Of a DNA stretch of 64,000 nt, positions 6,940-9,750 are shown piece after piece. How positions within the stretch are numbered: position 1 is the stretch's first letter; each line of letters opens with the position of its first letter. The translations under genes were made by a program, and so were the position numbers. This DNA comes from Flavobacteriales bacterium. Lineage in GTDB: Bacteria; Bacteroidota; Bacteroidia; Flavobacteriales_F; PHOS-HE28. The notes beneath the pieces are model-generated. The model ran no database searches. It was given only the letters and a program-made list of their open reading frames with translations, and was not told the DNA's origin. The stretch lies in NCBI GenBank assembly GCA_041391845.1, contig JAWKNG010000003.1:235053-299052 (forward strand). Reading direction: 5' to 3'.

Positions 6940-9750
6940 TCATCGCGACAAGTACATTGAACGTTCTCCATAGACTTGTCGGAAGAAGGGGTCTTTCAAG
7001 TCTTTGATGAAGTAAATCGCCTCACCCGTGCTCTTCATCTCAGGCCCCAGGCTCTTGTCCACATTGGGGAACTTGTCGAAACTGAAGACGGGCACCTTGA
7101 TCGCATAGCCATCCAGGCGCGGCTTGAACTGGAAGTCCTTGAGCTTGGCGCCGAGCATCACCTTGGTGGCCCAGTTCACGTAGGGCTCGCCGTAGGCCTT
7201 GGCGATGAAGGGCACCGTGCGGCTGGCGCGCGGGTTGGCCTCGATCACGTACACCACCTCGTTCTTGATGGCGAACTGGATGTTCACCAGGCCCACGGTC
7301 TTCAGGGCCAGCGCGATCTTGTGCGTGTGCTCGCGGATCTGCTGGATCACCTTCTCGCTGAGGTCGAAGGGCGGGAGCACGGCGTTGCTGTCGCCACTGT
7401 GGATGCCCGCCGGTTCGATGTGCTCCATGATGCCGATGATGCGCACCATCTCGCCGTCGCAGATGGAATCGCTCTCCGCCTCGATGGCGCCATCGAGGAA
7501 GTGATCGATGAGGATCTTGTTGTCGGGCATCAGGCGCAGGATGTCCAGCACCTGGTCCACGAGCTCCTCCTCGTTGATCACGATCTTCATCTTCTGGCCG
7601 CCGAGCACGTAGCTGGGGCGCACCAGCAGCGGGAAGCCGAGTTCGCGGCTCAGCTTCACGGCCTCCTCGGCATTGTTCACCGCACCGAACTTCGGGTACG
7701 GGATGCCCAGGTCGCGCAGCAGTGAGCTGAAGCGCTCGCGGTCCTCGGCCATGTCCAGCGCGGCGTAGCTGGTGCCGATGATCTTGATGCCGTACTTCTC
7801 CAGCTTCTCCGCCAGCTTCAGCGCGGTCTGCCCTCCCAGCTGCACGATGACGCCCTCGGGCTGTTCGTGCTGGATGATGTCGTAGATGTGCTCCCAGAAC
7901 ACGGGCTCGAAGTAGAGCTTGTCGGCCGTGTCGAAGTCGGTGCTCACCGTCTCCGGGTTGCAGTTGATCATGATGGTCTCGTAGCCCAGCTCCTTGGCCG
8001 CGAGCACGCCGTGCACGCAGCAGTAGTCGAACTCGATGCCCTGGCCGATGCGGTTGGGGCCGCTGCCGAGCACCACCACCTTCTTGCGGTCGCTGCGCAC
8101 GCTCTCGTTCTCCTCTTCGAAGGTGCTGTAGTAGTAGGGCGTCCGCGCGGGGAACTCACCGGCGCAGGTGTCCACCAGCTTGTACACGCGTTTGATGCCG
8201 AGCTCGTTGCGCTTCTTGTACACCTGGCTTTCGAGGCAGCCGAGCAGGTGCGCCACCTGGCGGTCGGCGTAGCCCTTCTGCTTGGCCTCGAAGAGCAGGT
8301 CGCGCGGGATGGTGTCAAGCGTGTACTTGCTCACCTCCTTCTCGGTGAGGATCATGTCCTCGATCTGCTTAAGGAACCAGATGTCGATCCGGGTGAGGTC
8401 GTGGATCTTGCTGAAGGGGATGCCGAGCTTGATGGCATCGTACACGTGGAAGAGGCGGCTCCAGCTGGGGTTGGCGAGGCTTTCGAGCAGTACGTTGGGG
8501 TCGGTGGTCTCCTTGCCATCAGCACCCAGGCCGTTGCGCTTGATCTCGAGGCTCTGGCAGGCCTTCTGCAGCGCCTCCTGGAAGCTGCGGCCGATGCCCA
8601 TCGTTTCGCCGACGCTCTTCATCTGCACTCCAAGCCTGCGGTCGCTGCCCTCGAACTTGTCGAAGTTCCAGCGCGGCACCTTCACGATCACGTAGTCGAG
8701 CGTGGGCTCGAAGAAGGCGCTGGTGCCGGTGATGGGGTTCTCCAGCTCATCCAGGCGGTAGCCGATGGCGAGCTTGCTGGCGATCTTGGCGATGGGGTAG
8801 CCCGTGGCCTTGCTGGCGAGCGCACTGCTGCGGCTCACGCGCGGGTTGATCTCGATGGCGTAGATCTCCTCCTTCTCGTCGGGGCTCACGGCGAACTGCA
8901 CGTTGCAGCCGCCGGCGAAGTCGCCGATGGCGCGCATCATCTTGATGGCCTCGGTGCGCATGCGCTGGTAGGTGCGGTCGCTGAGGGTCATGGCCGGCGC
9001 CACGGTGATGCTGTCGCCGGTGTGGATGCCCATCGGATCGAAGTTCTCGATGGAGCAGATGATGGTGACGTTGTCGTCCTTGTCGCGCAACAGCTCCAGC
9101 TCATACTCCTTCCAGCCGAGCAGCGCCTTGTCGATCATCACCTCGTGGATGGGGCTGATCTGCAGGCCGTGCTTGAGCAGCTTGTCGAACTCGGCGGGGT
9201 CCTTCACGAAGCTGGCGCCGGCGCCACCGAGCGTGTAGCTGGCGCGGATCACCAGCGGGAAGCCGAACTCCTGCGCCACCTTCTTGCCTTCGAGAAAGCT
9301 GGTGACGGTCTTGCTGGGCGCCATGGGCACGCCGATGCGCTCCATCAGCAGGCGGAACTGCTCGCGGTTCTCGGTGATGTCGATGGCCTTGGTGTCCACG
9401 CCGATCATGCGCACGCCGTACTGTTCCCAGATGCCGAGCTTCTCGCATTCGATGGCGAGGTTCAGCGCGGTCTGTCCTCCCATGGTGGGCAGCACGGCGT
9501 CGATCTTGTGCTTCTTGAGGATCTCCTCGATGCTCTCGGTGGTGAGCGGCTTGAGGTAGACGTTGTCGGCCGTGACCGGGTCGGTCATGATGGTGGCCGG
9601 GTTGCTGTTGATCAGCGTGACCTCGATGCCTTCGTTGCGGAGGGAGCGGCTGGCCTGGCTACCGGAGTAGTCGAATTCGCAGGCTTGACCGATGACGATC
9701 GGCCCACTCCCGATGAGCAGGACCGACTTGATGCTTTGATCTTTGGGCAT
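6940..9750 (-). CDS. carB: Carbamoyl-phosphate synthase large subunit (936 aa). It has both ATP-grasp halves, but the C-terminus is aberrant and there is no MGS-like domain
   Basis: It shows the duplicated CPSase architecture, a KLGYETIMINCNPETVSTD-type motif, an oligomerisation domain, and the MKSVGETMGIGRSF (first half) versus MKSTGEAIYFIKD... (second half) motifs. Confidence 0.9.
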   Translation of the reverse strand: MPKDQSIKSVLLIGSGPIVIGQACEFDYSGSQASRSLRNEGIEVTLINSNPATIMTDPVTADNVYLKPLTTESIEEILKKHKIDAVLPTMGGQTALNLAIECEKLGIWEQYGVRMIGVDTKAIDITENREQFRLLMERIGVPMAPSKTVTSFLEGKKVAQEFGFPLVIRASYTLGGAGASFVKDPAEFDKLLKHGLQISPIHEVMIDKALLGWKEYELELLRDKDDNVTIICSIENFDPMGIHTGDSITVAPAMTLSDRTYQRMRTEAIKMMRAIGDFAGGCNVQFAVSPDEKEEIYAIEINPRVSRSSALASKATGYPIAKIASKLAIGYRLDELENPITGTSAFFEPTLDYVIVKVPRWNFDKFEGSDRRLGVQMKSVGETMGIGRSFQEALQKACQSLEIKRNGLGADGKETTDPNVLLESLANPSWSRLFHVYDAIKLGIPFSKIHDLTRIDIWFLKQIEDMILTEKEVSKYTLDTIPRDLLFEAKQKGYADRQVAHLLGCLESQVYKKRNELGIKRVYKLVDTCAGEFPARTPYYYSTFEEENESVRSDRKKVVVLGSGPNRIGQGIEFDYCCVHGVLAAKELGYETIMINCNPETVSTDFDTADKLYFEPVFWEHIYDIIQHEQPEGVIVQLGGQTALKLAEKLEKYGIKIIGTSYAALDMAEDRERFSSLLRDLGIPYPKFGAVNNAEEAVKLSRELGFPLLVRPSYVLGGQKMKIVINEEELVDQVLDILRLMPDNKILIDHFLDGAIEAESDSICDGEMVRIIGIMEHIEPAGIHSGDSNAVLPPFDLSEKVIQQIREHTHKIALALKTVGLVNIQFAIKNEVVYVIEANPRASRTVPFIAKAYGEPYVNWATKVMLGAKLKDFQFKPRLDGYAIKVPVFSFDKFPNVDKSLGPEMKSTGEAIYFIKDLKDPFFRQVYGERSMYLSR

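Follow-up and report, generated by a model that had tools for sequence, protein, structure and literature searches.

A short native CarB in a Flavobacteriales bacterium and the likely role of its coding 3′ end as a hotspot for cassette insertion

The stretch of Flavobacteriales bacterium DNA analysed here (64,000 nucleotides (nt); GenBank assembly GCA_041391845.1, contig JAWKNG010000003.1, positions 235,053 to 299,052 of the forward strand; hereinafter the window) carries carB, the gene for the large subunit of carbamoyl-phosphate synthase (CPSase), at 6940..9750 on the minus strand. Translation of the open reading frame (ORF), Pfam and NCBIfam matches and structure alignment identify its product as a short-type CarB of 936 amino acids (aa). 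The gene ends in a functional 99-nt block (hereinafter unit A; 6940..7038, minus strand) that encodes the peptide from MKSTGE to LSR and the stop codon, delimited by codon usage and by comparison with relatives. Repeat finding and profile searches revealed four further copies of this tail downstream on the carB strand (units B to E), giving five copies in all, which are separated by ORFs in the order A-B-orf75-C-orf335-D-...-E.

The first half of the translated CarB contains MKSVGETMGIGRSFQEALQKA and the second half reads MKSTGEAIYFIKDLKDPFFRQVYGERSMYLSR up to the stop codon at 6940-6942, 26 residues after KSTGE. Pfam assigns CPSase_L_D1 and CPSase_L_D2 twice each and CPSase_L_D3 once, corresponding to two ATP-grasp halves and an oligomerisation domain, and the Pfam scan of the protein finds no MGS-like domain (PF02142). 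A preliminary description of the locus had stated that carB stops 26 residues after KSTGE with no MGS-like domain following, and translation, Pfam and NCBIfam bear this out to the exact coordinate. The protein scores far above the cutoffs of two NCBIfam equivalogs (NF003671, 1421.5 bits against 599; TIGR01369, 1316.3 bits against 1027); its residues 1-928 align to positions 1-926 of the 1058 in NF003671, and the last ~130 model positions, which represent the allosteric domain, have no counterpart.

Compared with Escherichia coli CarB (PDB 1BXR/1JDB; NF003671, TIGR01369), the window CarB shares both ATP-grasp halves and the oligomerisation domain, and the two proteins run colinear through (K/R)STGE and the stretch behind it as far as E. 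coli residue 936. In the alignment to solved structures (1BXR), E. coli residues 919-936 face, with no gap, the 18 residues that follow STGE, and the alignment stops at 936; from the structure literature, we take residues 936/937 to mark where the carbamoyl-phosphate synthetic component gives way to the allosteric domain. The tail AIYFIKDLKDPFF...LSR is the diverged equivalent of the canonical motif helix that ends in.KA, not unrelated sequence: the canonical E. coli motif faces the diverged AIYFIKDLKDPFFRQV in the window protein. Because that alignment is gap-free, the motif has diverged and has not been replaced, as the preliminary description had supposed. The difference between the two enzymes lies in the allosteric (MGS-like) domain, residues 937-1073 of E. 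coli CarB, which is absent from the window CarB and from every homologue sampled in Flavobacteriales and Cytophagales.

That sampling was done at two levels. Searching 5.8 billion protein clusters gave 8000 homologues, of which the best 120 (78-96% identity; Flavobacteriales metagenome-assembled genomes (MAGs), Sanyastnella, Vicingaceae and Cryomorphaceae) were examined. Among these best 120, full-length proteins measure 936-945 aa and an MGS Pfam domain is missing throughout; the 116 with a complete C-terminus all end in KSTGE plus 26 residues with the common pattern AI[YRH]FI..L.D.FF....Y.ER.[ML]Y[LM]S[RK]. A scan of species-representative genomes yielded 544 matches, of which the best 80 (72-95% identity) were taken as loci; they span Flavobacteriales and Cytophagales and include Spirosoma, Pontibacter, Arcicella, Flavobacterium, Maribacter and Flagellimonas. 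In 89 of 89 loci, these 80 among them, the 32-residue block from MKSTGE to the stop closes a long ORF, and most of the 89 have no repeats downstream of carB. CarB in every sampled relative thus ends about six residues past the point where the allosteric domain of the E. coli enzyme begins. The window CarB is the native short CarB of its lineage and is ordinary as a protein; the form is claimed for the sampled relatives (best 80 of 544 matches) rather than for the whole phylum. Since all of these relatives share the short form and the terminus, the missing MGS domain is a lineage trait, and the preliminary description's own alternative, an unusual short CarB of this lineage, is the one that stands (116/116 homologues, 89/89 loci). 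Its suggestion that an element had made a non-canonical enzyme end falls, as orthologs that mostly lack the downstream repeats have the same terminus.

We also considered a truncated or damaged carB, in which an element would have cut the allosteric domain off a once-longer gene and left the enzyme impaired or complemented by another copy. The canonical E. coli-type enzyme, at 1073 aa with its MGS-like domain, gives this idea its appeal. Every relative nevertheless has equal length and the same terminus, including genomes without downstream repeats, the carB end coincides with a domain border, the equivalog scores lie far over cutoff, and the tail copies differ only synonymously, showing selection on the peptide. 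We reject truncation and give it practically no credence. Nor did a detached allosteric domain appear among the ORFs downstream of carB in the window, none of which matches such a family in Pfam or NCBIfam. As a side observation on public records, Flavobacteriales-type carB genes occur in MAG records labelled Chryseobacterium gleum, Gammaproteobacteria or Thalassotalea (loci L009 (CAMCAZ010000001.1), L045 and L024); these labels are probably binning or labelling errors.

At the DNA level, the end of carB does not look native. GC content falls from ~0.63 in the carB body to 0.45-0.55 between ~3750 and 7050, and the GC content of third codon positions (GC3), 0.93 for carB overall, is 0.52 in the last 21 codons, the lowest among 916 sliding windows. 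These codons include ATT, AAA, TTG, CGA, CGT and TCA, each of which makes up 0-3% of the synonymous codons in the carB body. The break is sharp. Positions 1-35 of unit A (7004-7038) are native-like and 97% identical to the locus L001, whose CarB is 96% identical to that of the window, and positions 36-99 (6940-7003) are a synonymous recoding of low GC3. Against L001, identity amounts to 93.1% over the last 801 nt of the body, 97% over tail nt 1-35 and 72% over nt 36-96, a drop with a binomial P of about 5e-7; against L009, the values are 91% for the body, 94% for nt 1-35 and 67% for nt 36-96. Identity to both relatives breaks at ~nt 35 of the 99-nt block, and we read unit A as an attL-like hybrid junction.

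These comparisons support the view that the last 21 carB codons are a putatively foreign, synonymous copy, brought in by an element-borne replacement of DNA. The replacement is wholly synonymous and would therefore have no consequence for the enzyme, so that the preliminary description's claim of a native 3′ end replaced by an element-borne tail holds for the DNA (the recoded last 64 nt) and fails for the protein. Among the 88 other functional tails, the nearest to the recoded part is that of L012 (81%), and the donor lineage was not found among them. The window, L012, L110, L111, L113 and L114 form a sub-class in which the functional tail has a recoded 3′ part (CGACAAGTCTATGG.GAACG.TCAATGTAC), followed by a linker of 8-14 nt and a B-type partial unit. 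In these loci, the motif AGGCAGGTGTATGGGGAG is gone from the coding tail and persists in unit B; other relatives retain AGGCAGGTGTATGGGGAG in the functional tail despite their strong GC3 bias.

In the window, the linker GAACTTTG (6932..6939, minus strand) occupies the 8 nt between the carB stop and unit B (6845..6931, minus strand), a partial ghost copy that starts at tail nt 45 (GGATCC). A 35-nt insert in unit B, together with adjoining tail bases, forms a 44-nt hairpin (6880-6923; hereinafter hairpin 2), and the unit ends with AGGCAGGTGTATGGGGAG...TGA, which encodes RQVYGERSMYLSR and a stop. The arrangement of tail plus B recurs in L012, L110, L111, L113 and L114. The ATG of the 75-aa ORF orf75 (6621..6848, minus strand; GC3 ~0.53; no known family) overlaps the unit B stop in the sequence ATGA; at the other end of the ORF, its TAA and the unit C ATG share the sequence TAATG. 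Unit C (6505..6621, minus strand), 435 nt downstream of the carB end, is full-length apart from an insert and consists of ATGAAGAGCACGGGG, a 20-nt hairpin insert (6587-6606) and the codons for AIYFIKDLKDPFFRQVYGERSMYLSR with the stop. It encodes a peptide identical to that of unit A, the 23 differences in 81 nt all being synonymous (P about 1e-12), and matches the functional L009 tail at 96.5% identity; judged by that similarity, unit C is probably a displaced older carB end, that is, attR-like. The 335-aa ORF orf335 (5466..6473, minus strand; GC3 0.53) separates it from unit D (5271..5378, minus strand), a decayed copy that starts at tail nt ~22, contains hairpin 2 and has lost peptide coding. 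The outermost copy, unit E (3176..3312, minus strand), starts at tail nt ~19, carries hairpin 1 as well as hairpin 2 (3211-3254), still encodes RQVYGERSMYLSR and the stop, and lies 8 nt from a convergent gene at 1420..3168.

Hairpins 1 and 2 flank tail nt 45-58 at fixed positions, and hairpin 2 shows compensatory changes in 4 of its 15 pairs. Within the window, hairpin 2 is found inside tail units only, and a generic repeat of the repetitive extragenic palindromic type was rejected on that ground; an intrinsic terminator was likewise rejected, as no T-run follows the hairpin. The hairpins are GC-rich and lie next to recurrent breakpoints in the ghost units; they probably serve a function in the sites or in read-through transcripts. 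A diversity-generating retroelement does not fit either, since the 23 differences between A and C are all synonymous and not adenine-specific, and neither Pfam nor NCBIfam finds a reverse transcriptase domain in the neighbouring ORFs.

Some further features of the units are recorded here in their own right. The 3′ parts of units B, C and E encode RQVYGERSMYLSR and a stop by different synonymous codons, though none lies in a long ORF; these may be young units, units homogenised by gene conversion, or spare usable ends. Some ghost units have in-frame hairpin inserts, of 24 nt in hairpin 1 and 36 nt in hairpin 2, and such units (L001 13173-13295 and 13765-13887; L118 998-1252) remain mini-ORFs of 40-84 aa whose stop overlaps the start of the next cassette, an arrangement that would fit a chain of translationally coupled ORFs.

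Similar arrays of tail units are present in L001, L003, L007, L009, L010, L012 and L014 and in nine metagenome contigs found by the hairpin-2 pattern (L110-L118), at least seven of which have the 3′ end of carB, or a displaced fragment of it, beside the units. L001 is laid out as carB, orf116, a unit, orf158, a unit, a 3.6-kb segment, a partial unit, orf84 and a two-hairpin unit; the ORF starts and stops adjoin the units, and the hairpin-1 insert is in frame in two of them. The cassette of an 84-aa membrane protein with its two-hairpin unit occupies position 4 in L001 and position 1, directly after carB, in L009; the additional L001 cassettes therefore sit between carB and orf84. In L010, a 116-aa ORF and a YhcG/DUF1016 nuclease are each followed by a unit, and L003, L007, L012 and L014 have one extra unit each. 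L117 contains a C5-methyltransferase and a putative restriction enzyme, then a longer ghost (CarB residues 861-936) and a RelE/ParE pair; L118 has a 935-aa secreted protein followed by a ghost that begins at residue 849 with hairpin 2 in frame; and in L112 three tiny cassettes fit within 1.3 kb, among them a 5′-half unit broken at nt ~33.

Independent, lineage-specific arrays occur in low-GC Flavobacteriales (L056; L076 with a PKD protein of the type IX secretion system (T9SS) kind) and in the isolate Spirosoma utsteinense LMG 31447 (L041), where a toxin-antitoxin pair (RHH/PIN) precedes a 54-nt copy of the host's tail that starts at nt 46 with four synonymous differences. The ghost copies in L056, L076 and L041 all match the host's own tail. 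L013 and L004/L011 have no ghost units. Since many of these relatives are MAGs, the tandem tails could in principle stem from strain variants collapsed or chained during metagenome assembly. The copies, however, differ in hairpin inserts and truncations and are parted by unique ORFs, and the architecture recurs in many independent assemblies of different studies as well as in the Spirosoma isolate, which makes an assembly artefact very improbable.

The recognisable cargo of the arrays comprises a PIN toxin (L041), YhcG nucleases (L010, L004), PDC-S59 (L001), GmrSD (L007), a restriction-modification pair (L117) and ParE-type toxins; most cassette ORFs in the window and its relatives belong to no known Pfam or NCBIfam family. 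Cassette ORFs have a GC3 of 0.45-0.55, as does the recoded part of unit A, and neighbouring host genes 0.7-0.93. That most cargo points in the direction of carB, together with the ATGA and TAATG overlaps, suggests that cassettes may be expressed by read-through transcription and translational coupling. The 335-aa protein has a C-terminal R-x4-H (HEPN-like) motif, a marginal CARF_HEPN match (E=0.009) and a rare family of 32 clusters among the 5.8 billion; homologues lie downstream of carB in L119 (70% identity) and beside GAPS4 defence genes in L122 (44%), so a role in defence is plausible. Units B and D of the window, which orf75-C-orf335 separates, form one unit in L012, and the sequence after that single unit corresponds to the sequence after D, suggesting that recombination may happen in ghost units too.

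We consider it likely that the carB end is a hotspot for cassette insertion, combining a short native CarB with Campbell-type insertion within its tail. The tail repeats, the compositional break inside the tail, the purely synonymous recoding and the architecture common to relatives are observed; in which order the insertions took place and where the crossover lies we infer. In this clade, the 99-nt block would serve as a recombination target, at which small, mostly promoterless cassettes, co-oriented with carB, would enter through a Campbell-type crossover inside the tail. Each cassette would bring its own copy of the tail, ending at the stop codon but beginning at a variable left boundary; this copy would complete carB after insertion and push the previous tail downstream as a ghost unit; the cassette tail would therefore have to encode the right amino acids. 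Unit A would then be the hybrid nearest carB, joining native nt 1-35 to imported nt 36-99, and unit C the hybrid on the far side, joining an imported 5′ part with its hairpin insert to an older native 3′ part. Units B, D and E would be older or partial copies, and repeated rounds would have built the array A-B-orf75-C-orf335-D-...-E.

What might catalyse such insertions is suggested by the boundaries of the units. Their left ends cluster at three positions, namely nt 1 (0-5 nt from the ATG in more than 10 units with different cargo), nt 18-27 (window units D and E, L001 unit 4, L003) and nt 45 (the B class and Spirosoma), and hairpins 1 and 2 occupy fixed positions; both observations speak for site-specific recognition, possibly by a recombinase that is encoded elsewhere and acts in trans, a proposal we hold tentatively. 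We rank it just slightly above RecA-type or illegitimate recombination. In the latter case, tail turnover would be driven by homology with no dedicated recombinase: circles excised by RecA would re-enter by a single crossover, or by homology-facilitated illegitimate recombination anchored in carB, and the tail repeats would be both substrate and by-product. Such turnover is a conceivable alternative of slightly lower probability. It would account for the failure to find a recombinase near any array, for units of 54-290 nt, which are long enough for RecA, for the variable left boundaries, with long ghosts that reach CarB residues 849-862 in L116-L118, for the hybrid nature of units whose 5′ and 3′ affinities differ, and for the difference between the window and L012 by the orf75-C-orf335 block between the halves B and D. 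Against it speak the more than 10 units with different upstream cargo that start within 0-5 nt of the same ATG, the boundary at nt 45 shared by Spirosoma and the high-GC clade, and the conserved nucleotide sequence of AGGCAGGTGTATGGGGAG in the face of a GC3 of 0.93; it also leaves the precise loading of cargo between a stop codon and the next unit unaccounted for.

Several results weigh against our main reading, Campbell-type insertion within the carB tail. The left boundaries of the ghosts range from about -260 nt to +45, which a single site-specific enzyme would not produce and which homologous or illegitimate recombination explains more easily. Pfam lists show no integrase or recombinase within 10 kb in L001, L003, L004 and L007; a PHROGs scan of 41 window proteins of 150 to 520 aa hit 17 families, none annotated as a recombinase; and no cassette examined contains one. 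Viral contigs, plasmids and phages yielded no tail-like unit, and thus no free or integrase-bearing form of the element: the plasmid and phage collections gave no blastn match to tail units, and exact-motif matches in IMG/VR were dismissed as chance, none matching the tail profile. L012 combines an A-type tail with an abutting B-like unit; shared by sub-class loci such as L012, the recoding is old and predates this genome. Finally, most of the loci come from metagenome assemblies.

Part of this evidence also bears on a further alternative, in which integrase-bearing islands or prophages integrated serially at the carB 3′ end, lost their integrases by decay and left the small cassettes as remnants. 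Islands of this kind are classically recognised by direct repeats that rebuild the 3′ end of their target gene, and both aspects are found here: repeats of the carB 3′ end flank the inserts in the window (units A-E) and in relatives, and the gene is restored. The decayed unit D and some larger segments with several genes (D-E in the window; cassette 3 of L001, 3.6 kb; the L004 island of more than 10 kb) point the same way. The integrase expected of an island was found neither in the cassettes, nor among the PHROGs-scanned window proteins, nor within 10 kb in the four relatives, and ~20 arrays showed no fragment of one. Many cassettes, moreover, consist of one intact ORF of 0.25-1 kb, with its start and stop codons set directly against the units, unlike the products of random decay, and no unit turned up in the viral, phage or plasmid collections. 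We regard decayed islands as improbable.

The outer part of the array, between D and E, has three ORFs. Those at 3809..4567 (252 aa) and 4596..5090 (164 aa, with a predicted membrane segment) lie on the plus strand, have low GC3 and are assigned to no family. The third, on the minus strand, is an ORF of ~112 aa (3325..3664; GC3 0.78) that starts at an inner ATG (MINYHDRRF...) of the ORF 3325..3831 and has a homologue ~5 kb downstream of carB in L010 (15645..15983; 70% nt identity). Between these ORFs and unit D lies a conserved motif of ~90 nt (5134..5225), GGGCGTGCC-hairpin-GTCGCGCTTTCCGCT, with a weak match to the Flavo-1 RNA (RF01705) on the plus strand, opposite carB; the Flavo-1 matches (window 5134-5225 and L012 11029-11103) are below threshold, at 22 and 29 bits for a gathering score of 42, and the Rfam scan of 3000-7200 gave no other match. 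In L012, L111, L009, L118 and L004, the motif is found behind the last tail unit or behind carB itself, which makes it the probable ancestral flank on this side of the gene. At its far end, the array is closed by the convergent gene at 1420..3168 (plus strand), which encodes 582 aa with a CarboxypepD_reg-like domain. Beyond it, ~16 head-to-tail octamers CTGAGCAC/CTGTGCAC (1139-1273) overlap the 5′ end of a LytTR-domain ORF (644..1234, minus strand) and an ORF at 1155..1433 (minus strand); this could be a phase-variation tract acting by slipped-strand mispairing.

Upstream of carB, Pfam identifies a SpoIIAA-like ORF and an alpha/beta hydrolase in the window. This side of the gene also differs among close relatives: the SpoIIAA-like ORF occupies window 9751-10459, a ParE-type toxin-antitoxin pair lies upstream in L001 (9325-9791), and a block of CUB-domain, aminotransferase and DUF4890 genes in L004 (5127-9857).

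For annotation, it follows that a 936-aa CarB with no MGS-like domain is normal in these relatives and is not to be flagged as truncated. From general knowledge of the E. coli CPSase, the window CarB would presumably have no E. coli-type binding site for uridine monophosphate (UMP), inosine monophosphate (IMP) or ornithine, and feedback from pyrimidines and arginine on the enzyme would have to work otherwise than in E. coli. The repeated overwriting of an essential gene's last 20-30 codons by synonymous, apparently foreign copies is a clear hotspot signature; the hotspot extends from high-GC Flavobacteriales to Spirosoma and holds defence, toxin-antitoxin and restriction-modification cargo with no visible recombinase. 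A dedicated mechanism, should there be one, would add a new route of gene capture in Bacteroidota, where classical integrons are, to our knowledge, rare. A bolder idea, about which we remain doubtful, is that the carB tail arrays form a distinct, integron-like capture platform of Bacteroidota, anchored in the coding 3′ end of an essential gene, built on hairpin-bearing mimics of its last 18-33 codons, expressed by read-through and translational coupling, moved by a recombinase encoded elsewhere or by none, and preferring defence and toxin-antitoxin genes. Our literature search returned nothing relevant on carB as an attachment site or on CarB lacking the allosteric domain.

The arrays resemble several known systems. 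Staphylococcal cassette chromosome (SCC) elements insert at the 3′ end of rlmH (orfX), a housekeeping gene whose end is restored by the element-borne copy. As in the carB arrays, direct repeats of the gene end separate tandem elements, and some SCC elements carry only cargo and no recombinase and are presumed to be mobilised in trans, as the carB cassettes might be. SCC arrays, however, usually have ccr serine recombinases in at least one element and repeats of ~15-20 nt, whereas the carB repeats span 54-290 nt and contain hairpin inserts, and no recombinase is seen. Islands at tRNA and tmRNA genes and arrays of the tycheposon type arise by serial integration at one conserved site, and partial copies of the target 3′ end separate degenerate, cargo-rich and often defence-related segments, much as at carB. 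The carB target is instead the end of a protein-coding gene, the repeat is constrained to synonymous change, and no integrase turned up inside the arrays or next to them.

Integron arrays share with carB their compact, mostly single-ORF, promoterless and co-oriented cassettes, repeat units of 100-155 nt with conserved hairpins, toxin-antitoxin cargo and the newest cassette nearest the anchor. In contrast to integrons, no intI adjoins the carB array (Pfam; no integrase PHROG match), and each unit as a whole reproduces the coding end of the anchor gene, which would set it apart from an attC palindrome, although conserved hairpins with covariation lie inside the units. At rhs and cdiA, orphan C-terminal modules accumulate downstream as displaced 3′ fragments of variable length together with new cargo, a likeness consistent with recombination within a conserved part of the gene. 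There, the new 3′ end changes the protein into one with a new toxin, whereas the carB copies encode the same peptide and the cargo consists of separate genes. What sets the carB arrays apart from SCC elements, tRNA islands and tycheposons, integrons and rhs/cdiA alike is their repeat, a long, coding, synonymous mimic of the end of an essential gene with hairpins embedded in it.

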